This document shows positions 26,886 to 62,190 of a stretch of 64,000 nucleotides of DNA, one piece after another (positions within the stretch are counted from its first letter, which is position 1; every line of letters starts with the position of its first letter). The DNA is from an uncultured bacterium (GTDB lineage Bacteria > Patescibacteriota > Minisyncoccia > Phycocordibacterales > CAIRYW01), in the NCBI GenBank assembly GCA_963766885.1, contig CAVYBO010000002.1:175141-239140 (forward strand). The letters run 5' to 3'. The position numbers were made by a program, and so were the translations under genes. The notes beneath the pieces are model-generated. The model did no database searches and was not told the origin of the DNA. It saw only the letters and a list, made by a program, of their open reading frames with translations.

Positions 26886-26958
26886 GCGCGGTTAGCTCAG
26901 TTGGTAGAGCGCAACATTGACGTTGTTGATGCCAGAGGTTCGAGTCCTCTACCGCGCA
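26886..26958 (+). tRNA. tRNA-Val (anticodon GAC)
   Basis: 73-nt cloverleaf: GCGCGGT acceptor, GCTC-AGTTGGTA-GAGC D arm, CAACA-TTGACGT-TGTTG anticodon arm, AGAGG-TTCGAGT-CCTCT T arm. Confidence 0.85.
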
Positions 26959-26961
26959 CAC

Positions 26962-28005
26962 ATGAAAATACTTTCAATAGAAACAAGCTGCGACGAAACT
27001 GCTGTGTGTGTTTTGGAAGGAATAGGAAATGCAAAGAATCCGAAATTCAAAATTCTTGGAAATGCCCTTTTTTCGCAAGCCAAACTTCATCAGGAATTCG
27101 GCGGAGTATTTCCTACTCTGGCAAAAAGAGAACATCAAAGAAATCTGCCGCGATTGCTTGCAAAAGCGCTCAAGGAAGCCAAATTAAGCTCTGAAACACC
27201 AAAAATAGATTTGATTGCTGTGACAGAAGGCCCGGGACTTGAACCAGCGCTTTGGGTGGGAATTGTTTTTGCTAAAGATTTGAGTGACAAGTGGAATGTA
27301 CCAGTAGTTGGAATAAATCACATGGAAGGACATATCCTTTCGCCATTTTTGGATAACGCCAAAATTGGCAAAATAAAATACCCCACGCTTTCGCTTCTCG
27401 TTTCTGGCGGGCACACTGAGCTTGTTTTGATCAAAAAGTTTCTAAATTATGAAATATTAGGCAAAACTCGCGACGATGCTGTTGGCGAAGCTTTTGACAA
27501 GGTTGCTAGAATTCTTGGACTTCCCTACCCGGGCGGTCCAGAAATTTCCAAACTGGCTGCTTTGGCAAGAAAAAAGAAAGTTAATTATGATTTTGTGCTT
27601 CCCCGTCCGATGATTTATTCCAAGGACTTGGATTTTTCTTTTTCTGGACTTAAAACAGCAGTCCTTTATTTGACCAGAAAAATTGGAAACCTATCCGAAC
27701 AAGATAAAAAAAATATAGCTTTAGAATTTGAAAATTCTGCGATTGATGTTTTAGAATCAAAAACAAAATCTGCAATTCAAAAATACAATATCAAAACACT
27801 AATTGTTGCCGGCGGCGTATCCGCAAACACAGAATTGCGAAAGAGATTCAAGAAACTAACAAAAGAAGAAGGTGCTAATTTGTATCTTCCAGATAAAAAA
27901 CTAACTACAGACAATGCAGTGATGATTGCTATTGCAGGATTTTTCAAAAAAGACAAAAAAAATCCTGCAAAAAATATCAAAGCCCAGGGTAATTTAGAGC
28001 TTTAA
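26962..28005 (+). CDS. tsaD: tRNA N6-adenosine threonylcarbamoyltransferase TsaD
   Basis: MKILSIETSCDETAVC N-terminus and HMEGH metal site. The ORF-track start at 26917 lies inside tRNA-Val, so the start is set at the ATG at 26962. Confidence 0.9.
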   Translation: MKILSIETSCDETAVCVLEGIGNAKNPKFKILGNALFSQAKLHQEFGGVFPTLAKREHQRNLPRLLAKALKEAKLSSETPKIDLIAVTEGPGLEPALWVGIVFAKDLSDKWNVPVVGINHMEGHILSPFLDNAKIGKIKYPTLSLLVSGGHTELVLIKKFLNYEILGKTRDDAVGEAFDKVARILGLPYPGGPEISKLAALARKKKVNYDFVLPRPMIYSKDLDFSFSGLKTAVLYLTRKIGNLSEQDKKNIALEFENSAIDVLESKTKSAIQKYNIKTLIVAGGVSANTELRKRFKKLTKEEGANLYLPDKKLTTDNAVMIAIAGFFKKDKKNPAKNIKAQGNLEL

Positions 28006-28036
28006 AAAGGGCTTAAAAAATAGTATTATTTGCCTT

Positions 28037-30190
28037 ATGAATGAAAAATTCCTGAAGCCCTATAATCCCGCTGAAACCGAAAAAAGAATATACAAACTCT
28101 GGGAAGAGAGTGGTTTTTTTAATCCGGATATTTGCATTGAAAAAGGCATCACCAAAAGTGATGCAGAAGTTTTTTCAATGGTCCTGCCGCCCCCAAACGT
28201 CACTGGCAGACTGCATTTGGGGCATGCTCTGGAACACAGTCTTCAAGACACTATTGTGCGATTTGAAAGAATGCGTGGCAAACGAACACTTTGGATCCCT
28301 GGTACAGACCACGCTGCAATTGCCACGCAAGCCAGATTTGAAAAAGATTTGAATTCAAAAGAGGGTAAAAGCCGTCACGACTTTTCCCGCGAAGAATTTT
28401 TTGAAATGGTTCATAAATTCGGACTTGAAAACCAAAAACATATGCAAGAGCAAATGCGGCTTCTAGGGTCATCACTTGATTGGAGCCGGGAAGCATTTAC
28501 TTTGGATGAAAAAAGAAGTTTGGCTGTTCGTACAGCTTTCAAGCAAATGTACGAAGAAAAGCTGATTTACAGAGGTCACAGGATTGTGAACTGGGATCCA
28601 AAAGGCCAGACCACAATTTCTGACGATGAAATAGTTTATGAGGAACAAAAAACTAATTTCTACTATTTTCAATACGGACCATTTGTAATCGGAACAGCGA
28701 GACCAGAAACGAAATTCGGTGATAAATATGTGGTCATGCACCCTGATGACAAGAGATATAAAAAATACAAACATGGAGACAAGGTCGAGCTTGAATGGAT
28801 AAGCGGGCCTATTACCGCCACAATCATCAAAGATAAAGCTATTGATATGAAATTCGGCACAGGTGTTATGACAATTACCCCGTGGCACGATGTTGTTGAT
28901 TTTGAGATTGCTGAGAGACATAATCTGGATAAGGAACAAATTATTGATAAATATGGAAAATTGCTTCCAATTGCAGGAGAATTTGCTGGAATGAAAATAA
29001 AAGACGCAAGAGAAAAGATGGTTGAAAAACTAAAAGCAAAAAACTTGTTAGTAAAAATTGAAGAAAATTATGTAAACAGGATTGCTACTGCTGAGAGAAC
29101 AGGAGGAATTATTGAACCGCAAATAATGCTTCAATGGTTTGTAAACGTAAACAAACCAATCCCTTCCCGCAAAAACAAATCATTAAAAAGCCTCATGCTA
29201 GAGCCGGTTGAAAAAAATGAAATAGAAGTTTTACCAGAACATTTTAAAAAAGTCTATTCAAACTGGATTGACAATCTCCACGATTGGTGTATTTCCCGAC
29301 AAATAATATATGGTCATCAAGTGCCTGTGTGGTATAGAGAAAAAGAGATTTACTGCGGTATTGATGCCCCATCTGTTGAAGGCTGGACACAAGACACCGA
29401 TACTTTGGATACGTGGTTTTCTGCAGGACTTTGGACATTTTCTACCTTAGGTTGGCCAGAAAAAACCAAAGACATGCAGACATTTCATCCGACATCCTTT
29501 ATGGATCCGGCATACGAAATACTTTTTTTCTGGGTAGCCAGAATGATTATGATGAGCCAGTATCTGCTTGGAGAAATTCCATTCAAAAAAGTTTACCTGC
29601 ATGGAATTGTCCGCGACAAAACTGGCAAAAAATTCAGCAAGTCAAATAAAAACGGTGTTGAACCTGAAGAGATAATTGCTCAATTTGGCACTGATGCGCT
29701 CAGAATGTCTATGCTTGTAGGCAATGCTCCAGGTATGGATATAAACTTTGATGTTCAAAAAGTAAAAGCATACAAGAACTTTGCAAACAAGCTTTGGAAT
29801 ATTGCCCGTTTTATACAATCCTCAGTAGAAAATACTGATATGGATTCTGTTCTTTCTCCAATAGATGATCGATTATATGAGAGATTTCAGGAAATACTTA
29901 AAGATTTCACCAAAGACATCGAAGCCCTTCGCCTGCATATTGCCTCAGAAAAAATCTACCACTATGTATGGCATGAGTTCGCAGATAAAATTATAGAGGA
30001 AAGCAAAGTGATTTTAAAAAATGAAAATCCTTCAAATCAGCTAGAAATTAATTCCAAAAAAAGATTGCTTCTGGAAATTTTTGAGGGGTCGCTCAAAGCT
30101 TTGCATCCTTTTATGCCATTTGTAACCGAAGAGATCTGGCAGAATATCGGCAAAGAGAAGTTACTTCTAGTTGAAAAATGGCCAGTTTGA
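28037..30190 (+). CDS. valS: valyl-tRNA synthetase (short form)
   Basis: PPPNVTGRLHLGHA HIGH region, KFSKS KMSKS-like motif, editing-domain TGV/WH motifs. Confidence 0.9.
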   Translation: MNEKFLKPYNPAETEKRIYKLWEESGFFNPDICIEKGITKSDAEVFSMVLPPPNVTGRLHLGHALEHSLQDTIVRFERMRGKRTLWIPGTDHAAIATQARFEKDLNSKEGKSRHDFSREEFFEMVHKFGLENQKHMQEQMRLLGSSLDWSREAFTLDEKRSLAVRTAFKQMYEEKLIYRGHRIVNWDPKGQTTISDDEIVYEEQKTNFYYFQYGPFVIGTARPETKFGDKYVVMHPDDKRYKKYKHGDKVELEWISGPITATIIKDKAIDMKFGTGVMTITPWHDVVDFEIAERHNLDKEQIIDKYGKLLPIAGEFAGMKIKDAREKMVEKLKAKNLLVKIEENYVNRIATAERTGGIIEPQIMLQWFVNVNKPIPSRKNKSLKSLMLEPVEKNEIEVLPEHFKKVYSNWIDNLHDWCISRQIIYGHQVPVWYREKEIYCGIDAPSVEGWTQDTDTLDTWFSAGLWTFSTLGWPEKTKDMQTFHPTSFMDPAYEILFFWVARMIMMSQYLLGEIPFKKVYLHGIVRDKTGKKFSKSNKNGVEPEEIIAQFGTDALRMSMLVGNAPGMDINFDVQKVKAYKNFANKLWNIARFIQSSVENTDMDSVLSPIDDRLYERFQEILKDFTKDIEALRLHIASEKIYHYVWHEFADKIIEESKVILKNENPSNQLEINSKKRLLLEIFEGSLKALHPFMPFVTEEIWQNIGKEKLLLVEKWPV

Positions 30191-30899
30191 TCTGATTTTT
30201 AAAATGCCAAGTATTGAAGAAATAATTTTGTTTGCAGTCATCGGGGGCATAGTGCCATCCGTAATTTGGCTTAAATTCTGGCTAAAAGAAGACAACCATC
30301 AAGAGCCAAGAAAAATTATTTCTGTAACTTTCATGTTTGGAATGATTTCGGTATTTTTTGCAATATTGATTGAGAAGTTAATTTCTCTAATTGTTCCCGA
30401 TTATACTTTTCTCTCCCTCTTGCTTTGGGCAGCAACGGAAGAAAATCTAAAGTTCCTGTGTGCTTACATTCCAGCCCTTCGGACCAGATTTGCTGACGAG
30501 CCGATTGACATGGTGGTATACATGGTCACCGCTGCTCTTGGATTTTCAGCAATGGAAAATTGCCTATTTTTGATAGGTCCGTTTGCAGATGGAAATATAA
30601 TGAAGGGTATTGCAACAATCGATTCGCGCTTTGTAGGAGCATCTCTTCTTCATATTTTAACTTCAGCAACATTGGGTATTTTTATGGCAGAATCATTTTT
30701 TAGCTCAAAAATTAAAAAGTGGAGCTACTTGATCAGCGGATTACTCCTAGCGACGATATTGCACGCGGCGTTTAATAATCTTATAATAAAGGCACAATCT
30801 GGAATAATGATTTCTTTCGGCTTAGTCTGGATAGGAATCATCGTGGTAGTTCTTATTCTAAATAAAATTAAAAGCGTTAAAAACATCAACCAAATATGA
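30171..30899 (+). CDS. PrsW-family intramembrane metalloprotease
   Basis: ATEENLKF (EExxK), FSAMENCLF (FxxxE) and conserved His motifs in a multi-TM protein. Confidence 0.6.
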   Translation: MKNGQFDLIFKMPSIEEIILFAVIGGIVPSVIWLKFWLKEDNHQEPRKIISVTFMFGMISVFFAILIEKLISLIVPDYTFLSLLLWAATEENLKFLCAYIPALRTRFADEPIDMVVYMVTAALGFSAMENCLFLIGPFADGNIMKGIATIDSRFVGASLLHILTSATLGIFMAESFFSSKIKKWSYLISGLLLATILHAAFNNLIIKAQSGIMISFGLVWIGIIVVVLILNKIKSVKNINQI

Positions 30900-31339
30900 A
30901 AAAATCTTTTTTTAAAAAATTAACCGGCATTGCAGACGAAGATGATTTTGAAGAAAAGGATGAGATTGAAAAATCTGGCCGTAAAGAGCTAACGGATGAC
31001 GACGATTCCGAAGGTGAGCTGACTGTTGATGTTTTTGAAACTCCAACTCATATTGTGCTCAAAACTATTGTTGCTGGAGTCAGAAAAGAAGACCTAGACA
31101 TTGGCCTTTCTCGCGATATGGTTTCAATCCGCGGACACAGAGAGTCAGAAAACACGGTTGATGAAAGCAATTATTTTCATAAAGAGCTTTATTGGGGATC
31201 ATTTTCCCGAACTATCCTTTTGCCACAAGAAGTTGATATTGAACGCGCAGAAGCTGTTGAAAATCAGGGATTACTGACAATCCGTCTTCCAAAGATTGAC
31301 AAAGGCAGGCAGACTAAATTGAAAGTTAAGTCGTTATAA
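30896..31339 (+). CDS. Hsp20/alpha-crystallin small heat-shock protein
   Basis: Alpha-crystallin domain (VDVFETPTHIVLKTIVAGVRKEDLDI…GLLTIRLPK). Confidence 0.85.
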   Translation: MKKSFFKKLTGIADEDDFEEKDEIEKSGRKELTDDDDSEGELTVDVFETPTHIVLKTIVAGVRKEDLDIGLSRDMVSIRGHRESENTVDESNYFHKELYWGSFSRTILLPQEVDIERAEAVENQGLLTIRLPKIDKGRQTKLKVKSL

Positions 31340-31513
31340 ATGAAAAAATATTTACTTTTATCTTTTACTTCTTTTGCTTTAGGGATAGGAATTTTTGTGA
31401 TAGGTATGTTGTTATCTTCTCATTTTAAAGTTCCTCATTATCCCAGTTACATAGGATTACTTCTTGCCTTCCCCATTATTATTTTATTTTATATCTTTCT
31501 TTTACCTAATTAA
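31340..31513 (+). CDS. small hydrophobic membrane protein (57 aa), not in the ORF track
   Basis: ATG directly after the hsp20 stop; two predicted TM helices. Confidence 0.3.
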   Translation: MKKYLLLSFTSFALGIGIFVIGMLLSSHFKVPHYPSYIGLLLAFPIIILFYIFLLPN

Positions 31514-31716
31514 AAGCGCGAGACATGAATCAACATCAGGATTAGTTGTATTCTTTCTCGACTTTTTCTTCGTCGCCACTCAGAAAAGTCTGGGCACCAG
31601 CTCGCTCGTTTTTTCTGCTGAAAAAACATAGCTGTGCTGTTCTCGCCCGCTCGAAAGCAAATAAATTTGCTTTCTCCCTCGGCAAACAAAAGACTCCCAA
31701 AAGGGAGTTTTTGTTT

Positions 31717-31792
31717 TGGTGCCGAGGGGCGGGCTCGAACCGCCGACCCCATGCTCTTCAGGCACATGCTCTACCAACTGAGCTACCTCGGC
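31717..31792 (-). tRNA. tRNA-Phe (anticodon GAA), CCA encoded
   Basis: GCCGAGG-TA-GCTCAGTTGGTAGAGC-A-TGTGC-CTGAAGA-GCATG-GGGTC-GGCGG-TTCGAGC-CCGCC-CCTCGGC-A-CCA. Confidence 0.85.
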
Positions 31793-43807: not shown

Positions 43808-44926
43808 TTAAAAGTTAACTGTCTTTGGAGTTCCAAGTCCTGTGATGTAATCATAATGCTTACGCGCATCGCAATAATATGTGCAATCTCCGTTTGAACC
43901 GCTAGTGATGTCAGTAAAAAATTCAGAATAATTAATTGAGGCTTTGTCTGAATAAAAATTTTTATTTCCCGCGCCTTTGCCCAAATCCGCAATTGCGGCC
44001 CATTGAGGCGCGCCAGCAGACGTGCCGCCGACTTTATACCACTTGCCTTTGCTTATGATTGAAAAGCCAGACGCTGGATCTGCATCGTAGGAAACGTCGG
44101 GAATTGCGCGCATTCCGGAAGACTTTGGAATGCTGTAAGCAATCTGGAATTCAGGCTCTTTTTCATAAGCGCTCACACCTCCGCCGCTTCCGGCCCATGC
44201 TGTTTGCTTTAGTACATTGCCTTTTAAGTCCAAAGCAACTGACGTGCCGCCAACACCCACAACATTTACTGATGCGGCTGGCCAGCTCGCCCCCGCTCCG
44301 TTGTCGCCTGAAGAGGCAAAGAAGACTGCTCCAGATTTGGAAACAAAATGACTGTCGAGAGAGGTCTCTTCAGGAAACTCTCCTCCGCCCCAGCTCATTG
44401 AAATTGCCACAACATCGCTCCTGCCAGCTGCATAATCCACAGCTTTAAGAAGATTTGATCCGCTCTGAGTTGTAGCTTCCACCAAAAGAATTTTGGCATT
44501 CGGCGCAATGGCATGAGCCCATTCCACATCAAGCGAAGTTTCCATCGCCCAGCCGCTGTTTGAACTAATTGTTGAACTCATTTTGTATTTTTCAAAGCAT
44601 CCGTTTGAAGTGGTGCAGCTAGGCAAACCGAACTGCAAATTAAAAGCATTTAAATCATTTTCAATAGATGCATCATCGTATGCGCCGATAAGCGCGATTG
44701 TTCCGCGACCGCCGGTTTGAGGAAGATTATAAATTTTTTTGACCTGATTAGGTGTTAATCCTGTTGGAGACTTCGTAGAAGATCTGTAAATATGAATTGG
44801 CGGCCTGCCTTTATAATTTGAGAAATGATAACTGGCTTCAGCTTTTTGTGTTTGAAATAAAAATACGGTTATTGATAAACTTACAACCACAAAAGTGAAG
44901 AAAATAGATTCCGATCTTTTTTTCAT
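43808..44926 (-). CDS. secreted S8/S53-family serine peptidase (sedolisin-like)
   Basis: Signal peptide; SSGDNGAG and GGTSAGAPQWAAIADL catalytic-Ser region. Confidence 0.55.
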   Translation of the reverse strand: MKKRSESIFFTFVVVSLSITVFLFQTQKAEASYHFSNYKGRPPIHIYRSSTKSPTGLTPNQVKKIYNLPQTGGRGTIALIGAYDDASIENDLNAFNLQFGLPSCTTSNGCFEKYKMSSTISSNSGWAMETSLDVEWAHAIAPNAKILLVEATTQSGSNLLKAVDYAAGRSDVVAISMSWGGGEFPEETSLDSHFVSKSGAVFFASSGDNGAGASWPAASVNVVGVGGTSVALDLKGNVLKQTAWAGSGGGVSAYEKEPEFQIAYSIPKSSGMRAIPDVSYDADPASGFSIISKGKWYKVGGTSAGAPQWAAIADLGKGAGNKNFYSDKASINYSEFFTDITSGSNGDCTYYCDARKHYDYITGLGTPKTVNF

Positions 44927-45596: not shown

Positions 45597-46715
45597 AATG
45601 GCGGTGTGTCGGAGTTAAGTACCTGTGAGTCCAATCCCTATAAGCATCTTCTGACATCTTTTTGGAAATTAATTTGAAGGATCAGAGTCTACATCAATAT
45701 TTTAAAAATGAGACAAATGAAACATTAATTATCAGTGTGAGAAAAACGCCTCCGTATAAATTTTTTCTTCAGAGATTTTAAAAGATCGCAAATCACGCCA
45801 AATATCTCGAGTAAAAGATATAGAGCCGCAAATCAGAAATTCAGTATCTGAATCAATCGGAATACTTTCAATAATTTTTTGTCCGGTAATTCTACCTTCA
45901 AAAATTTTCTCTGAAACCTTTTCTCTTGTTATAAAATAATTCACCTTAAAATTTTTATACTGATTTTGAAGTTCATCAAAAGTTTTTCTAAAAATTATAT
46001 CCTGAAGCGTTTTGTTGCTATAAAAAAGAGTCATTTTTCTTAATGGGTTATTCAAAAGAGCTGAAATAATCATGCTCCTGAAAGGAGCGATACCAATGCC
46101 GGCAGCAACCATAACCAAATGGCTTTTTTCAGATTCGCTGTAGAAAAATCCATATGGCAAAGAAGCTATGATTCTATCTCCTGTTTTTTTCGCTACAAGA
46201 CTATTTGAAAACTCACCAATAGCTTTGACTGTAATACTAATTAATCTTTCCTTTGGAGAGCTGGATATGCTGTATGCTTTGCCCTCTGGCGTGTTGGTCT
46301 CAGGAAAATAGACAGTTATGAATTGCCCAGGAACATAGTGCGGGCAAACTTTATTCCAATTAATAAGTCTTAACGTGGAAACCCCCTTTGCTTCCATTAT
46401 ATTGCTTTGCACCATGTATGTTTCTTTAATTTCTCTTTTCATCGCTGTTTTCGTAATCTTCAATTGCTTCTCGTAAAGCCTCATGCCCCAAGACCGAGCA
46501 GTGATATTTCCTGTCTGGAAGGCCACCAAGGCGATCAATTATTGATTCCGGGGTCAGCCGCTTTGCCCGATCAACAGTCATGCCACTGTTTTCAGTTGCC
46601 ATAACTGACATCATTGATGTCGAAGCGATTGCTGAGGCACAACCAAATGTTCGCCATTTGCATTCGCTGATTTTTTTTGTTTTCTTATCTACTCTAATCC
46701 AAACAATCATCATGT
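45597..46715. repeat. ~1.1 kb segmental duplication, copy 1 (FNR-like gene plus 3' part of iscU); near-identical to 56293..57418
   Basis: Identical 268-aa ORFs and identical flanking nucleotide sequence; I saw one mismatch (gaaggatcag vs gaagggtcag). Confidence 0.85.
45732..46538 (-). CDS. FNR-like FAD/NAD(P)-binding oxidoreductase (PyrK-like, no Fe-S Cys cluster), copy 1
   Basis: GKAYSISSSP (RxYS-type FAD site) and VMVAAGIGIAPFRSM (GxGxxP NAD site). Confidence 0.6.
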   Translation of the reverse strand: MIALVAFQTGNITARSWGMRLYEKQLKITKTAMKREIKETYMVQSNIMEAKGVSTLRLINWNKVCPHYVPGQFITVYFPETNTPEGKAYSISSSPKERLISITVKAIGEFSNSLVAKKTGDRIIASLPYGFFYSESEKSHLVMVAAGIGIAPFRSMIISALLNNPLRKMTLFYSNKTLQDIIFRKTFDELQNQYKNFKVNYFITREKVSEKIFEGRITGQKIIESIPIDSDTEFLICGSISFTRDIWRDLRSFKISEEKIYTEAFFSH

Positions 46716-56185: not shown

Positions 56186-56434
56186 AGTTAATTGATTACT
56201 TGATTATAATATAACACAAATAAAAATGAAAACCATATTCCGAACATGAAATCTAAGGTCTTGCTTATCGGGCATCAGGGTCTTCCGATACTAAATACTC
56301 TTGGCGGTGTGTCGGAGTTAAGTACCTGTGAGTCCAATCCCTATAAGCATCTTCTGACATCTTTTTGGAAATTAATTTGAAGGGTCAGAGTCTACATCAA
56401 TATTTTAAAAATGAGACAAATGAAACATTAATTA

Positions 56435-57241
56435 TCAGTGTGAGAAAAACGCCTCCGTATAAATTTTTTCTTCAGAGATTTTAAAAGATCGCAAATCACG
56501 CCAAATATCTCGAGTAAAAGATATAGAGCCGCAAATCAGAAATTCAGTATCTGAATCAATCGGAATACTTTCAATAATTTTTTGTCCGGTAATTCTACCT
56601 TCAAAAATTTTCTCTGAAACCTTTTCTCTTGTTATAAAATAATTCACCTTAAAATTTTTATACTGATTTTGAAGTTCATCAAAAGTTTTTCTAAAAATTA
56701 TATCCTGAAGCGTTTTGTTGCTATAAAAAAGAGTCATTTTTCTTAATGGGTTATTCAAAAGAGCTGAAATAATCATGCTCCTGAAAGGAGCGATACCAAT
56801 GCCGGCAGCAACCATAACCAAATGGCTTTTTTCAGATTCGCTGTAGAAAAATCCATATGGCAAAGAAGCTATGATTCTATCTCCTGTTTTTTTCGCTACA
56901 AGACTATTTGAAAACTCACCAATAGCTTTGACTGTAATACTAATTAATCTTTCCTTTGGAGAGCTGGATATGCTGTATGCTTTGCCCTCTGGCGTGTTGG
57001 TCTCAGGAAAATAGACAGTTATGAATTGCCCAGGAACATAGTGCGGGCAAACTTTATTCCAATTAATAAGTCTTAACGTGGAAACCCCCTTTGCTTCCAT
57101 TATATTGCTTTGCACCATGTATGTTTCTTTAATTTCTCTTTTCATCGCTGTTTTCGTAATCTTCAATTGCTTCTCGTAAAGCCTCATGCCCCAAGACCGA
57201 GCAGTGATATTTCCTGTCTGGAAGGCCACCAAGGCGATCAA
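56435..57241 (-). CDS. FNR-like FAD/NAD(P)-binding oxidoreductase, copy 2 (identical protein), directly upstream of pyrD
   Basis: Identical 268-aa translation to 45732..46538. Confidence 0.6.
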   Translation of the reverse strand: MIALVAFQTGNITARSWGMRLYEKQLKITKTAMKREIKETYMVQSNIMEAKGVSTLRLINWNKVCPHYVPGQFITVYFPETNTPEGKAYSISSSPKERLISITVKAIGEFSNSLVAKKTGDRIIASLPYGFFYSESEKSHLVMVAAGIGIAPFRSMIISALLNNPLRKMTLFYSNKTLQDIIFRKTFDELQNQYKNFKVNYFITREKVSEKIFEGRITGQKIIESIPIDSDTEFLICGSISFTRDIWRDLRSFKISEEKIYTEAFFSH

Positions 57242-57417
57242 TTATTGATTCCGGGGTCAGCCGCTTTGCCCGATCAACAGTCATGCCACTGTTTTCAGTT
57301 GCCATAACTGACATCATTGATGTCGAAGCGATTGCTGAGGCACAACCAAATGTTCGCCATTTGCATTCGCTGATTTTTTTTGTTTTCTTATCTACTCTAA
57401 TCCAAACAATCATCATG
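57129..57417 (-). pseudogene. 5'-truncated iscU copy (C-terminal ~96 codons) abutting the IS3 element
   Basis: Identical to the 3' part of iscU at 46426..46866; the reading frame upstream is replaced by IS sequence. Confidence 0.7.
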
Positions 57418-57478
57418 TGGCCCTCCCCCCAAATTTCATACACCAACCTTGTATAATTAGAAGCTAATATACAAGCAT

Positions 57479-57733
57479 ATGAAAAGACAAAAAATAGCCC
57501 CTGAAATAAAGGAGCAGATTATTAACAGAATCAAGAATGATGGTATCAGTGTAGTCCAAGCAGCCAAAGAGCATGGCATCAGCGATGTCACCATATATGG
57601 GTGGATAGCCAAGAAAACCAAAGGTCAGCCAACTCTTTCAGAGGTAATTAAACTCAAGCGAGAAAATGCTCAACTGCTTCAGTTAGTTGGAGAAATTACT
57701 CTAAAGCTCTCAGAAACCCAAAAAAAGAATTGA
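57479..57733 (+). CDS. IS3-family transposase OrfA (HTH)
   Basis: HTH plus leucine-zipper-like C-terminus; ends at the AAAAAAG frameshift motif (about 57717..57724). Confidence 0.8.
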   Translation: MKRQKIAPEIKEQIINRIKNDGISVVQAAKEHGISDVTIYGWIAKKTKGQPTLSEVIKLKRENAQLLQLVGEITLKLSETQKKN

Positions 57734-58551
57734 AAGAAAATAGTGAGACTCCCAAAACTCTTCGGGCCAGAGAGCTTGGGATCTCCCGCAGCACTCTCTA
57801 CTACAAACCAAAGAAACCTGACAAAGATTGGGAACTAAAATGTCAGATTGAAGAAGTTCTCAGAGAGCATCCTTCATATGGTTCTCCACGCATCGCCCTT
57901 GCCCTCAAAAGAAACCACAAACCGATTGAACGAGTGATGAAACTTTTCGGTATCAAGGCATATCGCAGACGTGGTAGAAGATGGAAAAAATCGAAGAATA
58001 TCAAAGTTATTTACCCAAATCTTCTTTTGACTAATTATCCCCAATATGAAAATCATATCTGGGTGACAGACTTCACCCGCATACCCTTTGAAAACAAAAC
58101 CATCTATGTGGCTACAGTCGAAGATTTGTTCACCAGAAAAATTGTTGGGTTGTCAGTATACACCACCCATGCTGTTCAATTGGTTTTAGCATCATTCATG
58201 TCGGCTCTTCAAAATAATCCCAGACCAAAAATTTTCCACTCTGACAACGGCAGTGAATACAACTCGGAGGTGTTCATTCAGGCGCTGCAGACCGTCGGGG
58301 TATTGATTTCTCGTTCTGCTCCAGGTTGTCCGTGGGAGAATGGGTACCAGGAATCTTTCTACGACAAATTCAAAATTGATCTTGGGGATTCTTCCCGATT
58401 CAAAACATTGGGAGAGCTGGTGTTCGCTATTTACCAAACAATTTACATTTACAACAACACCAGGATTCATACCGCCCTCAAAATGTCACCCGTGCAATTT
58501 GCACTTTCGTCGGCTCGAGAATACAATTCAGCTAACAAGGTTAGTGTCTGA
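57730..58551 (+). CDS. IS3-family transposase OrfB (rve integrase core, DDE)
   Basis: HIWVTDFT (D), HSDNGSEY (D), PWENGYQESF (E) integrase-core motifs. Confidence 0.85.
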   Translation: MKENSETPKTLRARELGISRSTLYYKPKKPDKDWELKCQIEEVLREHPSYGSPRIALALKRNHKPIERVMKLFGIKAYRRRGRRWKKSKNIKVIYPNLLLTNYPQYENHIWVTDFTRIPFENKTIYVATVEDLFTRKIVGLSVYTTHAVQLVLASFMSALQNNPRPKIFHSDNGSEYNSEVFIQALQTVGVLISRSAPGCPWENGYQESFYDKFKIDLGDSSRFKTLGELVFAIYQTIYIYNNTRIHTALKMSPVQFALSSAREYNSANKVSV

Positions 58552-58616
58552 TGAAATGGGGGAAGTACAGTGAATCAAAGGAATCCTTCCAGAGATGTCT
58601 AAAGCGTGAGTGAGTT

Positions 58617-59690
58617 ATGAATGCAAATCCGCAGCTTGCTGTATCAGTACAGACAGGTCTGGTCCGCTGGTTTGACCGCCGCCTCGATAAGAGGTTCGGC
58701 TTCATTACCTTGGACTGGAAAAACCCAAAGGAGGAAGACATTTTCTTCCACCTCAACGACAACGCCATCGTCTACGGAGACGCTGGTCAACCATACTTCC
58801 GGACTGACCCGGCGAACAAACCGGCTAGGCTCCCTGAAGAGGGTGACCTGGTGGTGTTTGAAACTCAGCATCCTCCACGTGGTCCGAAGGCCAAGCCTTG
58901 GGCTTACCTTCATGACTACGAGGCGATCGTGCGCGGTATTTCTCCGCAGCCGCTGTACCGACTGGTCGGGCACTACCATATTTCAGACGGCGGCAAGGAG
59001 AAAAAAGGTCCTCGGATTATCTTCTGGGGCGGCCTGTCTCTCGACTCGCTGTATCTCCGGTATCCGGACTGTCGAGCGGATCTCGCAGCCATCAAGTGGT
59101 GCTTCCGGTTGCCCTGCTCGAAAGTCGAAGGTATCCATCTGGAAGTTCTGCCCGCGGAAGCGGACAAGTACGACGACTCGGCGTGGATGCCTTACGAAAT
59201 TCCGGAAGATGCGGACGACGATGTCGTTCTCATTACAGAACCGAAGCTCAAGATCACCGCTGAGTACGGCCACGGTGGTCACGAAACCGAGTACGTCATC
59301 CGACTCTGGGAGGAAGAACCGGGACACCCCGGCCATTACCTCAAGTGTCTCGACTTCCCGAAGGAGTTTTCCGACGAGTTCGAGATCGTGGCCAGAGCCG
59401 AGCCGAAGCGGTGGGCAGTATATCCCCGCGGTGTTCGGATCGAGGTGTACTTCACGGATCAGCTCCGGACCGAAGAGCCGGTTCCCTACGGGACACCGGG
59501 TTTCGTTAGCTTCTCTTCCAATCATTTCGAATGCAAGCGTCTCATTGAGACGACTCTGCAGCGGCTGAAAACGAAGCTCGCCAAGCTTCGCAAGGAGAAG
59601 ATCCTGGACATCTGGGCCGACGATTTAACTTCGCCCCTCATCAAGGAGCGCAAGCTTACGTTCCATGTGAACGAGGTCGTCGTGGAGTAA
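58617..59690 (+). CDS. cold-shock-domain (CSD) N-terminal fusion protein with a ~280-aa C-terminal domain of unknown function; G+C-rich foreign gene
   Basis: N-terminus GLVRWFDRRLDKRFGFITLDW…DIFFHLND matches the CSD RNP1/RNP2-like pattern. The rest is unrecognised. Abrupt rise in G+C and GC3 relative to the host. Confidence 0.45.
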   Translation: MNANPQLAVSVQTGLVRWFDRRLDKRFGFITLDWKNPKEEDIFFHLNDNAIVYGDAGQPYFRTDPANKPARLPEEGDLVVFETQHPPRGPKAKPWAYLHDYEAIVRGISPQPLYRLVGHYHISDGGKEKKGPRIIFWGGLSLDSLYLRYPDCRADLAAIKWCFRLPCSKVEGIHLEVLPAEADKYDDSAWMPYEIPEDADDDVVLITEPKLKITAEYGHGGHETEYVIRLWEEEPGHPGHYLKCLDFPKEFSDEFEIVARAEPKRWAVYPRGVRIEVYFTDQLRTEEPVPYGTPGFVSFSSNHFECKRLIETTLQRLKTKLAKLRKEKILDIWADDLTSPLIKERKLTFHVNEVVVE

Positions 59691-59766
59691 CAGGTTCACA
59701 CAATATATTAAAGGTTTGTCCCCGCCCTGAAATTCGGAGAGCCTAGAGGAAGCAGAGCCTCAAAAC

Positions 59767-59802
59767 AAAGCCGTCGCCCACAAGCGCGGCTTTTGTCTTT
59801 TT
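59767..59802 (+). terminator. rho-independent terminator after the CSD-fusion gene
   Basis: aaagccgtcgcccacaagcgcggcttt hairpin followed by TTTTGTCTTTTT. Confidence 0.6.
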
Positions 59803-59838
59803 ATATTTTATTGTAATGTCTTACCATCTGTACTTTAT

Positions 59839-60300
59839 ATGATCCAAAACAGATTACGCATCCTGTGTCTATACAACGACCAGGAACCAAGCTATCTGGA
59901 AGCGGATCCAGAATTCGAACTTCGAGATCACGAAGTAACAATCTTCGAAACGTATGTGGAAGCGAAGACAGCAATTCAGGATAGCACAAGAGGAATACCT
60001 CCTTTCGATGTTGTCCTTGCAGATGTGTCAGTGCCTGGAGGAAAATTCGAAGACGGTTTTGACGACTTCCCTTTCTCTCCAGTATTGCTTCAACCCTATC
60101 TGAGCCAAGTACTTGTGCGAGGTTTAGGCGTCTTTGCTCCGGAAGATTTCGAAACAACCTTTGAGTCCTCAGATGGATTTGCTGTGCTAGTTGCTTCGAA
60201 AGAATGTCGAACACCATTCGGCACTCGAGACTGGAGGAAACTTTTGGAACTTGTTCTCAAGGCTTCGGATGAAGCTGACCAATTCAGAGTCCGTGACTAA
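59839..60300 (+). CDS. stand-alone receiver (REC)-like domain protein with atypical acidic pocket (NDQE in place of DD); G+C-rich
   Basis: RILCLYNDQE…YVEAKTAI…FDVVLADVSVPGG…FAVLVASKE follows the CheY-like beta-alpha layout with a conserved phospho-acceptor-position Asp. Confidence 0.35.
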   Translation: MIQNRLRILCLYNDQEPSYLEADPEFELRDHEVTIFETYVEAKTAIQDSTRGIPPFDVVLADVSVPGGKFEDGFDDFPFSPVLLQPYLSQVLVRGLGVFAPEDFETTFESSDGFAVLVASKECRTPFGTRDWRKLLELVLKASDEADQFRVRD

Positions 60301-60322
60301 CCCGCTATGCGGGTATTTTTTA
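60301..60322 (+). terminator. terminator after the REC-like gene
   Basis: cccgc-tat-gcggg followed by TATTTTTTA. Confidence 0.55.
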
Positions 60323-60343
60323 TAGAAAATATTTTTTAATTTA

Positions 60344-60376
60344 AATAAAAAAATCGAGCCGCATTTCTGCAAGCTC
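60344..60376 (-). terminator. terminator of the convergent minus-strand gene 60378..61262
   Basis: cgagc-N13-gctcg hairpin followed by an A-run on + (a T-run on the minus strand). Confidence 0.55.
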
Positions 60377-60377
60377 G

Positions 60378-61262
60378 TTACTTTCGATTCATGAACATCG
60401 ATGCCGCTGCGGCCAGACCACAGAGAAGGATGAGTTCTTGATACCAGCCGTCCACATTGTGACAAGTGAACTCAACACCATATCCTCGACGAATGTCGTG
60501 AACATGCGGAGACGGATGAATTCCACAAGCATCACCTGGACAGTCGATGATCAGGTTGCCACCTGTAACCCAGGAATGGAAGGAATGTTGATGGAAGTCT
60601 TCCACCTCTCCGAACATTTGCCTGTAGGCAGATTTCTCTGCCTCAACCACTATGGGAAGCTCAACATCACTGCCGCGAGATACGGAACGCAGTAGGTCAA
60701 CGAAATCCGGACTCATCTGTCCTCCAAGGAAGTGGCGACCAGCCTGTCCCCCAAGAAGCAGAGTAAACCACTGCTTTTCCTCCGATTGGATATCCACTTC
60801 AGGTGAGAACTCGATGGCAGAAAAGAGAACCGAGAGCGAGATGCAGAGCAACCGCGCTTTGTCCCAATCACGAACCCTCTGCCATCCTGTGCCACGACAG
60901 TCCATGCAATCTCCCATGATTTCTCCGCAGCTAATTCGGTTGCGAGTTCCCTGACATTCCGGACAGACCATGCCGGTTTGGTGAATCACATGAGGAATCC
61001 TGATCCGATAGGTTATCCAGTCAGCATCAGTTTCTTCTCTGACGATAACCTCGTCAAAGCCGAAGGTGTCCTGACCAAGTCTCGTTTCGCAACGAAGGAA
61101 AAGGTCACGTTCAACACCAAAAAGCTTGAAGTGTTTGGCAGTTTCTCTGTATGGAGCTGTTTCGATGAACTTTCGATGAATCTTCAGAAACAGAGACTCT
61201 TCGTCCCTGTCCCACCACAAACCATACCACTTGGGTATGTCTTCAAAGGCGAGTACTTTCAT
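60378..61262 (-). CDS. Cys-rich zinc-ribbon (CxxCxGxG DnaJ-type repeat) protein of unknown function with C-terminal hydrophobic tail; G+C-rich
   Basis: CPECQGTRNRISCGEIMGDCMDCRGTG; C-terminal LILLCGLAAAASMF. Confidence 0.4.
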   Translation of the reverse strand: MKVLAFEDIPKWYGLWWDRDEESLFLKIHRKFIETAPYRETAKHFKLFGVERDLFLRCETRLGQDTFGFDEVIVREETDADWITYRIRIPHVIHQTGMVCPECQGTRNRISCGEIMGDCMDCRGTGWQRVRDWDKARLLCISLSVLFSAIEFSPEVDIQSEEKQWFTLLLGGQAGRHFLGGQMSPDFVDLLRSVSRGSDVELPIVVEAEKSAYRQMFGEVEDFHQHSFHSWVTGGNLIIDCPGDACGIHPSPHVHDIRRGYGVEFTCHNVDGWYQELILLCGLAAAASMFMNRK

Positions 61263-61301
61263 ATCTGACTGGATATTACTACAACGCGTTTACTGTGCAA
61301 G

Positions 61302-61751
61302 TTATAGAGTGTCCAAAGCTTTTACAGCAAAGAATTTAATATCTTCTCTCAAATCCATATTTTGCAATTCTTCTTTGTTAAGCCACTTCCACTCATCTTC
61401 TGGTTTTTCTGGGATAACTTTGTCTGTATTTGAACTGGCAAAATAGACATTAACCACATGTTCATGAGTATTTGTTATATTGTGTCTGCCTAAAGAAATC
61501 GGAGGAATTAATTGCTTGTTTTCTTTGTCTTCATGATGAAATACTTGGTTACCGTTCCATAATTTCACATCCAACCCAACTTCTTCTTTCACTTCTCTTA
61601 AAGCTGCTTGATTTGGATCTTCATCAAGTTCAATATGTCCACCAACACTTAACCAGATTTTGTATTTATCGTGCAGTCTAAGCAGAACTTTGTTTTTATG
61701 AACAACAAAGACCTCAACAACAAAATCAATTTTTTCGTGGATGTGGGGCAT
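61302..61751 (-). CDS. NUDIX hydrolase
   Basis: Nudix box GGHIELDEDPNQAALREVKEEVGL. Confidence 0.7.
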   Translation of the reverse strand: MPHIHEKIDFVVEVFVVHKNKVLLRLHDKYKIWLSVGGHIELDEDPNQAALREVKEEVGLDVKLWNGNQVFHHEDKENKQLIPPISLGRHNITNTHEHVVNVYFASSNTDKVIPEKPEDEWKWLNKEELQNMDLREDIKFFAVKALDTL

Positions 61752-61752
61752 A

Positions 61753-62190
61753 TTATTTATCCCACCCAAACTCCGAGTAAAAGATTCCTTTCCTGTAACA
61801 TTCGATAGCTTCTCTGATATATGGGATAGTGTTTTCTGGCAGATTGCTAATATCAAACCAGCTAAGATCACTGCATTTGTCTGATTCAATGTTTGTGATC
61901 TCACCTTTCCACTTTTTTGGTTCAAAGAAGAAATCCATTCGTTCATCATTACCTATTCTGTGCATTACTACTTTTAAGTCTAAATCATTAGGATTAATAT
62001 CTACACCACTTTCTTCTTTTGCTTCTCTGACAGCTGCGGAAGTCATAGCTTCATTTCCATCTACGTGTCCAGCGACAAGACTATAGTTTCCATCTTCGTA
62101 TCCTGTGTTCGCTCTACGAAGGAGCAAGATTTTCTCTTCTTTTCTGAAGAATAGATAGACTGAAGCGATTAATTTGAATTTTTCTTTCAT
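61753..62190 (-). CDS. NUDIX hydrolase
   Basis: Nudix box AGHVDGNEAMTSAAVREAKEESGV. Confidence 0.75.
   Translation of the reverse strand: MKEKFKLIASVYLFFRKEEKILLLRRANTGYEDGNYSLVAGHVDGNEAMTSAAVREAKEESGVDINPNDLDLKVVMHRIGNDERMDFFFEPKKWKGEITNIESDKCSDLSWFDISNLPENTIPYIREAIECYRKGIFYSEFGWDK

Follow-up and report, generated by a model that had tools for sequence, protein, structure and literature searches.

A G+C-rich three-gene patch beside an IS3 element in a Patescibacteria genome: a probable mosaic of horizontally acquired genes

Analysis of a 64,000-nucleotide (nt) stretch of DNA (the window) from an uncultured bacterium of the Patescibacteriota (assembly GCA_963766885.1, contig CAVYBO010000002.1, positions 175,141 to 239,140) showed a G+C-rich patch at positions 58570-61300, immediately to the right of an insertion sequence (IS) of the IS3 family. 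An earlier note, made from the sequence alone, had recognised three open reading frames (ORFs) in the patch, and all three were confirmed where it had placed them; they are named P1, P2 and P3 here. Table 1 shows the coordinates of the three genes and of the features around them. The patch was atypical in composition, adjoined an intact-looking IS3 element and was continuous with the host DNA on its right side, and its three genes demonstrated no conserved linkage elsewhere.

Table 1. Positions of the three patch genes, their terminators and the neighbouring features in the window (aa, amino acids; GC, G+C fraction of the gene; GC3, G+C fraction at third codon positions)
Feature	Position	Strand	Remarks
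P1, 357 aa	58617..59690	+	Most G+C-rich gene; GC 0.56, GC3 0.68
P2, 153 aa, small soluble protein	59839..60300	+	GC3 0.39, near host
P3, 294 aa	60378..61262	-	Convergent to P2; GC 0.50, GC3 0.505
Terminator-like hairpin and U-run after P1	59765..59800	+	Scan match 59773-59790; fold with 9-10-bp stem, then UUUUGUCUUUUU
Intrinsic terminator after P2	60300..60324	+	ACCCGC-TAT-GCGGGT, then T-run; fold z = -2.4
Terminator-like hairpin and U-run after P3	60340..60372	-	CGAGCUUGCAGAAAUGCGGCUCG, then AUUUUUUU; fold of 60320-60385 (minus strand), z = -3.5
IS3-family insertion sequence, ~1.15 kb	57418..58569	+	Transposase models, inverted repeats, TG...CA ends
OrfA	57479-57733	+	Pfam HTH_Tnp_1, 40.7 bits
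OrfB	57730-58551	+	Pfam rve (67 bits), rve_3, rve_2
Second copy of 1117-bp direct repeat	56302..57418	-	First copy 45599-46715; self-blastn 99.91% identity over 1117 nt
NUDIX hydrolase gene	61302..61949	-	Pfam NUDIX E = 3e-15; GC 0.349, GC3 0.31

The G+C profile was taken with a 300-nt sliding window and compared with the G+C of the whole window (0.387). The values lay at 0.33-0.43 up to 58450, rose to 0.53-0.59 across 58600-59700, dipped to 0.42-0.47 at 59650-60400, stood at 0.50-0.53 at 60400-61150, and were again 0.34-0.38 from 61150 on. The G+C content of third codon positions is mostly independent of amino-acid content, and the GC3 of the three genes was set against the 63 other non-overlapping ORFs of the window (mean 0.335, standard deviation 0.055, maximum 0.458). 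P1 had a GC3 of 0.682 (z = +6.3) and P3 of 0.505 (z = +3.1), while P2 (0.390, z = +1.0) was near host-like. The compositional anomaly of P1 and P3 is real and far beyond chance. The abrupt switch to above 50% G+C that the earlier note had described therefore stands as a real rise with two outlying genes, but not as a uniform one: the patch is heterogeneous, carrying three different signatures, and is not above 50% G+C throughout. The differing GC3 of P1, P2 and P3 argues against a single block from a single donor. On the right, the first AT-rich, host-like gene was the NUDIX hydrolase gene, which places the boundary at 61263-61301.

The left border of the patch was formed by the IS3 element. 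The NCBIfam model NF033516 (transpos_IS3) matched with 207 bits (cut-off 160), the OrfA and OrfB frames overlapped in the -1 frame, and an A7G slippery motif, AAAAAAAG, was read from the sequence at 57720-57727. The terminal inverted repeats were imperfect (29 nt, 72% identity, 57424-57452 and 58535-58563) and the TG...CA ends were located at about 57418 and 58569; the boundary that had been proposed at 58569/58570 agrees with this right end (about 58563-58569). The element is like other members of the IS3 family in its OrfA (helix-turn-helix) and OrfB (DDE/rve) genes with a -1 overlap, its A7G site, its imperfect inverted repeats, its TG...CA ends and its length of about 1.15 kb. Unlike them, it showed no 3-bp target-site duplication when one was looked for (the left triplet was atg and the right one gtg), and its flanks were not contiguous host sequence: the left and right flanks were unrelated, and the right side was not a continuation of nifU.

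The DNA to the left of the element was the second copy of an 1117-bp direct repeat, which differed from the first copy by one mismatch (45681 A, 56384 G). This copy carried an ORF for an FNR-like oxidoreductase (56435-57241, Pfam NAD_binding_1) and a 5'-truncated nifU (57129-57446, Pfam NifU_N) coding for 105 aa, where the intact nifU codes for 146 aa. The second repeat copy stopped exactly at the left end of IS3, and the two copies diverged after ...catcatgt. The duplicate at 56302-57418 either arose by duplication or rearrangement through the IS or is a place at which the assembly needs checking. Since the 3-bp duplication was missing and the flanks were not contiguous host sequence, the IS3 element is not a simple insertion but marks a junction formed by recombination or rearrangement. 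With the mismatched flanks and the adjoining 1.1-kb duplication, the patch itself looks like the product of an IS-mediated rearrangement rather than a discrete integrative element. The possibility that the patch is itself a composite transposon or integrative element was rejected, as the searches found no second IS3 end at the right border of the patch and no att-like direct repeats flanking its borders. No tRNA was located within 25 kb of the patch.

The IS3 sequence was also recovered outside the window. An isolated contig of 1095 bp from another run (Logan contig L034, ERR10755936) was an exact match to 57469-58563, and the exact OrfA protein was also recorded in a sample of the Joint Genome Institute (JGI). 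A repeat with several contexts typically assembles as an isolated contig. Together, the contig and the JGI record indicate that the IS3 element is a repeat, or that it occurs in more than one context or sample.

A chimeric contig join had been raised as a further explanation, and this was addressed with a second Logan contig, L002 (run ERR11630394, 3433 nt), an independent k-mer assembly identical over its whole length to 58543-61975 of the window. It unites 27 nt of the right end of IS3, the entire G+C-rich patch, and 674 nt of AT-rich DNA in which the whole NUDIX gene (GC 0.35) is contained. Because L002 is exact across the patch and the NUDIX gene, a join with DNA of a foreign organism at 61262/61302 is excluded. 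The patch is physically continuous with the host DNA on its right side, and the compositional jump at the right-hand junction is not a misjoin. The same identity ties the G+C-rich DNA to this IS on the left. L002 covers only the last 27 nt of IS3, and a chimeric join would now concern only which IS3 copy adjoins the patch.

It follows that an assembly artefact, in which DNA of a higher-GC organism from the same metagenome was joined through the repeated IS3, is very unlikely. The repeat-like behaviour of the IS, with its isolated contig in another run, would suit such a join, as would the start of L002 only 27 nt inside the IS, the unrelated IS flanks without target duplication, and the near-identical 1.1-kb duplication next to the IS, a structure that assemblers can mis-resolve. 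Against this stand the identity of L002 to the window over the patch, the host-like DNA and the IS3 end, the lone mismatch between the 1117-bp copies, which suggests two real copies, and the distribution of the P2 and P3 families, which elsewhere are nearly confined to contigs of the Patescibacteria type and in this agree with the host. The segment at 56.3-58.6 kb, with the 1.1-kb duplication and the repeated IS3, is the place for an assembly check.

Each of the three genes was followed by a hairpin with a U-run, in agreement with the strong terminators that had been proposed for them. As each gene ends in a terminator of its own and P3 is transcribed towards P2, the patch consists of three monocistronic units and is not an operon. 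P1 starts 47 nt past the end of IS3 and, with only this distance between them, is probably transcribed from the right end of the element now. A promoter-like site near P1 (58498-58527) was a consensus match only.

Relatives of the three proteins were searched for in order to see their genomic contexts. A word-indexed search of 5.8 billion proteins returned 7 relatives of P3, and a scan of 185,579 species genomes returned 23 P3-family loci, 22 of them labelled as Patescibacteria groups or 'uncultured bacterium'. These 23 species-representative genomes and four metagenome contigs gave 27 P3-family loci in addition to that of the window, whose own genome was not among the species representatives that the scan returned. 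Results from tblastn showed no relative of P1 or P2 near P3 in any of the 27 loci, and when all ORFs within ±4 kb were clustered, no neighbour family recurred in more than 3 of them. P2 had 4 relatives (46-72% identity), two of which came with context (L006 and L007); these two had no neighbours in common with each other or with the window, and in L006 the segment around the gene was higher in G+C, with a gene for a serine recombinase about 3 kb away. Neither the P3 family (27 loci) nor the P2 family (two loci) had recurring neighbours. Over all 30 related loci (27 for P3, two for P2 and one for P1), the three genes never occurred together. The earlier note had put forward a three-gene module and had proposed its conservation as a block in other genomes as a check; this check was run and no such block was found in the 30 loci.

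The P2 and P3 families were found essentially only in assemblies of Patescibacteria, also called the candidate phyla radiation (CPR), with the labels Saccharibacteria, Paceibacterota and "Patescibacteria group", and including Beckwith-, Wolfe-, Yanofsky-, Portnoy- and Andersenbacteria. In most genomes the G+C content of the P3-family gene slightly exceeded that of the DNA around it (a typical excess was +0.02 to +0.08), and in the window the excess was +0.11. In one Paceibacterota metagenome-assembled genome (MAG) the P3-family gene stood directly after a cluster of TsaD, class-I aminoacyl-tRNA synthetase (aaRS), PrsW and Hsp20 genes (L018, 4068-10828), and parts of this cluster lay within 10 kb of three further P3-family loci. 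The association is loose (4 of 23 genomes, directly adjoining only in L018) and too weak to assign a function. The window has an orthologous TsaD-aaRS-PrsW-Hsp20 cluster at 26917-31339, whose genes were 36-49% identical to those in the MAG loci, which, with the distribution of the P2 and P3 families, points to a host of the Patescibacteria type; the region (26917-31792) ends with a tRNA-Phe and not with P3. The only P3 copy in the window is the G+C-rich copy by IS3.

Scans of P1, P2 and P3 against Pfam, NCBIfam, PHROGs and PADLOC showed only the borderline cold-shock domain (CSD) of P1, which bears out the earlier statement that no family could be named beyond this domain. PADLOC produced no match for P2 or P3, and for P1 only CSD_V (18.8 bits, aa 60-93, E = 2.7e-4), a generic CSD fragment. 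Three IMG/VR scans showed no relatives apart from one CSD-only match, JGI metagenome scans for P2 and P1 produced no match, and blastn against plasmids produced none either. The patch carried no defence, phage or toxin signature in PADLOC, PHROGs, Rfam or the three IMG/VR scans. The second half of the P1 CSD matched the effector model of retron Se72 weakly (E = 0.013). A retron or defence reading of this domain was rejected, as Pfam found no reverse-transcriptase domain in the neighbouring ORFs, Rfam found tRNAs only in the window and no non-coding RNA of a retron, and the match was confined to a generic CSD fragment.

For these reasons it is extremely unlikely that P1, P2 and P3 form one functional mobile module, that is, a system of the stress-response, toxin or anti-phage defence type, in which P1 would be the nucleic-acid-binding sensor or effector, P2 a receiver-like switch and P3 a zinc-ribbon partner. 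Such a module would account for three adjacent genes of more or less atypical composition beside a transposon, and the weak retron Se72 and CSD_V matches of P1 could be read in its favour. It is contradicted by the absence of co-occurrence in the 30 loci, by the three separate transcription units, one of them convergent, by the different GC3 values of the genes, and by scans that gave a generic fragment for P1 and nothing in PADLOC for P2 or P3, turned up neither a reverse transcriptase nor phage relatives, and had tRNAs as their only Rfam matches.

It is also very improbable that the three genes are native to the lineage and owe their higher G+C to amino-acid composition or to expression-linked codon bias. 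The slight G+C excess of P3-family genes over their surroundings in most genomes would fit native genes, and the GC3 of P2 lies inside the host range. P1 and P3, in contrast, exceeded all 63 other ORFs in GC3, and the P3 excess was larger here than in other genomes. In addition, the position that the P3-family gene holds after Hsp20 in L018 is taken by the tRNA-Phe in the window, and the region adjoins IS3 at a rearranged junction.

With a probability of roughly 0.7, the 58570-61300 patch is accessory DNA gained by horizontal transfer, a small mosaic that lies at a rearrangement junction made by IS3 and comprises three unrelated genes constituting neither an operon nor a system. Horizontal acquisition had been suggested before and is the best reading; the DNA is compositionally foreign and adjoins a bona fide IS3. 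The patch would have accreted by separate acquisitions from a Patescibacteria pool of lineage-restricted hypothetical proteins. P1 may be the latest arrival, from a donor of roughly 55-60% G+C, and would be driven from the right end of IS3, possibly by the promoter-like site. P2 could be older or could come from a lower-GC donor, and P3 would be a xenologous copy of the family that adjoins the TsaD-aaRS-PrsW-Hsp20 cluster in some relatives.

Several points weigh against an acquired mosaic. The acquisition was deduced from composition and patchy distribution and not from an empty site in a close relative, and the borders have neither att-like direct repeats nor a tRNA. P2 is no clear compositional outlier, which leaves room for some of the patch to be native or of older date. 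The non-linkage of P1 and P2 rests on few loci, as there was one P1 context and there were two P2 contexts. The roles proposed below for the three proteins are motif-based, and the structural model of P1 was of low confidence.

The acquired mosaic was compared with the genomic islets and IS-associated regions described for Patescibacteria (PMC12455944). The patch is like them in its atypical G+C and GC3, its mobility gene at the border, and its cargo of patchily distributed hypothetical genes whose relatives are mainly from the same phylum. It is unlike them in being very small (2.7 kb and three genes), in its internally heterogeneous composition, and in lacking an integrase, a tRNA target and direct repeats at its flanks. 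Patescibacteria genomes commonly contain genomic islands; as much as 13% of their length has been ascribed to horizontal transfer, and most individual gene transfers are intra-phylum (PMC12455944). The patch is a further case of the IS-associated gene flux already documented in streamlined Patescibacteria genomes, and as such it raises no new question.

The P1 protein was found to be composed of two modules. Residues ~14-195 form a module, here called CSD-plus, that contains a cold-shock domain with an inserted loop and a conserved extension of ~90 aa with the pattern KAxPW...P.YRV...LW.G...L...P...W...DPR in the family alignment. An acidic linker follows, and then a rare module of ~150 aa (aa ~205-357). 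The cold-shock domain that had been proposed for P1 holds: P1 alone scored 26.0 bits against the Pfam CSD model (PF00313, gathering score 27), its relatives P0016, P0018 and P0043 exceeded the gathering score (27.8-36.9 bits), and the CSD-plus family profile matched CspB in the PDB (5jx4, E = 2e-8). The ribonucleoprotein (RNP) motifs, an RNP1-like KRFGFI (aa 25-30) and an RNP2-like IFFHL (aa 42-46), were conserved in 31 family members, in which G28, F44 and H45 were invariant and F29 and F43 were conserved in at least 90%.

An exhaustive HMMER pass for P1 over 1.84 billion representative proteins showed only 2 full-length proteins, P1 itself and P0002 (44% identity). The N-terminal module gave 280 matches at E <= 1e-3, from a family of proteins of about 170-200 aa, the best being P0016 (191 aa, E = 2e-54), and some of these relatives were labelled as cold-shock-domain proteins of Levybacteria. 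The C-terminal module matched a stand-alone protein of 156 aa, P0067 (E = 5e-10). P1 is therefore a fusion of two modules, one shared with the CSD-plus family and the other with P0067. The gene for P0067 lay between recA and polynucleotide phosphorylase (PNPase) in its own contig, with no CSD gene adjoining; the neighbouring recA gene was split by an intein that carries a LAGLIDADG endonuclease domain (L031, 2345-4465).

The gene for P0002 was located in a 142-kb contig beside UvrABC, in a patch inserted after the uvrB-adk-uvrA-uvrC genes (L001, 9000-11750). The GC3 values in this patch were 0.82 for a nucleoside deoxyribosyltransferase, 0.65 for P0002 and 0.68 for a Y1 (IS200/IS605-type) transposase, with a contig G+C of 0.45. 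Genes of the P1 type thus stand twice in compositionally foreign DNA beside transposases of two families.

P1 shares with the cold-shock proteins CspA and CspB (PF00313) an N-terminal oligonucleotide/oligosaccharide-binding (OB) fold with the RNP1-like and RNP2-like motifs. It differs from them in its length (357 aa against about 70 aa), in an insertion of ~15-25 aa in the CSD, and in the ~90-aa extension, common to about 280 CSD-plus proteins, that is followed by the rare 150-aa module. From these motifs, P1 is predicted to bind single-stranded nucleic acid, probably RNA, with the OB-fold tethering two uncharacterised modules. An AlphaFold model of P1 built from a 2-sequence alignment had a mean predicted local distance difference test score (pLDDT) of 36 and was unusable.

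The P3 protein belongs to a Patescibacteria-wide family, and the DnaJ-type zinc ribbon that had been recognised in it holds. Two CxxCxGxG repeats (CPECQGTR...CMDCRGTG, aa 99-126, with the repeats at aa 99-106 and 119-126) make up one zinc centre of the DnaJ type. Against the Pfam DnaJ cysteine-rich model (PF00684), P3 scored 12.3 bits (gathering score 32.7), the best family member reached E = 1.1e-4, and the match was sub-threshold in 6 of 8 family members. The P3 profile matched the DnaJ cysteine-rich domain 1exk (E = 0.006) and Ydj1 1nlt (E = 0.009) in the PDB, and Foldseek aligned stretches of about 40 aa locally with DnaJ-like proteins of phages. An AlphaFold model from eight sequences (pLDDT 82, predicted template modelling score, pTM, 0.83) showed two alpha/beta halves with a long helix at the end of each, and no known relative of the conserved core or fold was detected. 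In a 29-sequence alignment, the zinc ribbon was an insertion missing in about one quarter of the family, and the invariant residues were G68-F69, Q164, C241-P-G-x-A-C246-G, H268-N269 and Q275.

The CxxCxGxG repeats with their one zinc centre, the profile matches to 1exk and 1nlt and the local Foldseek matches are the likeness of P3 to the central cysteine-rich domain of DnaJ (PF00684) and to the small zinc ribbons of phages or of anti-TRAP. DnaJ, in contrast, has four repeats and two zinc centres against the two repeats and one centre of P3, which also lacks the J domain and the DnaJ C-terminal domains. P3 is further unlike them in that its ribbon is an optional insertion and its core, CPGxACG...HN, has no detectable known relative. 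Judged by its sequence, P3 behaves as a protein with one DnaJ-type zinc centre but is no member of the DnaJ family. It is predicted to be a soluble protein that binds zinc through the single DnaJ-type CxxCxGxG pair, and the CPGxACG...HN core is a candidate second metal site or a candidate redox or catalytic site.

A hydrophobic C-terminal tail had been noted for P3. The stretch is a conserved helix in the high-confidence model, and the relatives end in charged residues (...LAALHDKARKE), so it is no membrane anchor. A membrane tail anchor had been considered as a candidate and was rejected on the family conservation, the charged ends and the model.

The receiver-like assignment of P2 was weakly supported. 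No Pfam match was produced for any of 5 family members up to E = 10, and the P2 profile gave only sub-threshold matches in the PDB (E 0.33-1.1), with 3 of the top 5 being receiver domains. Alignment of the P2 family with six classical receivers by hhalign gave a probability of 81% over 39 columns, in which the family-invariant Asp62 aligned with CheY Asp57. The motif of the beta3 region, FDVVLADVSVPGG, has the invariant Asp at the position of CheY Asp57 and a Pro at that of CheY Pro61, and Asp14 and Glu16, which follow the first strand, were invariant in the family alignment. At the position of CheY Thr87 there was no conserved Thr or Ser (family GIFVP), and at that of CheY Lys109 there was K, R or N.

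P2 is like the CheY-like receivers (PF00072) in its similar size, its alternating pattern of hydrophobic strands, the Asp and Pro of the beta3 motif, and Asp14/Glu16 after the first strand. It is unlike them in having no Pfam match, in aligning over 39 columns only, in its non-conserved Thr/Ser and Lys, and in having no partner kinase gene nearby. P2 may be called receiver-like at best and is not a demonstrable member of the family. The residue pattern suggests a degenerate, receiver-like alpha/beta adaptor, probably without canonical phosphotransfer.

Most Patescibacteria genes are still without known function, and the less ordinary part of the patch is its cargo: the P3 family and the CSD-plus family of ~190-aa proteins are uncharacterised, and neither is specific to this locus. 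These two families, P3 with its CPGxACG...HN core, are candidates for structural and biochemical work. P3 and P1 could represent families with new biology: P3 as a new enzyme with a metal or redox centre, or as a chaperone peculiar to these ultra-small bacteria, and P1 as one of a new class of modular CSD effectors (CSD-plus joined to a second module) that act on nucleic acid and travel with transposases. A bolder version, against which the evidence argues, would make all three genes work together as one mobile unit for stress or defence; taken jointly, these proposals are unlikely.

Two minor observations were made on other genes of the window. The listed NUDIX ORFs to the right of the patch (61302-62190) overlap by 197 nt. 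As the NUDIX domain of the first begins only at aa 93, its true start is probably a Met near 61751, which would leave a tandem pair of NUDIX hydrolase genes. On the minus strand at 43808-44926, an ORF of 372 aa had an N-terminus resembling a signal peptide and the motif GTSAGAP, which is typical of serine peptidases; it produced no Pfam match at E < 0.01. The local G+C there reached 0.51, making it the sole other 500-nt interval of at least 0.47 outside the patch.

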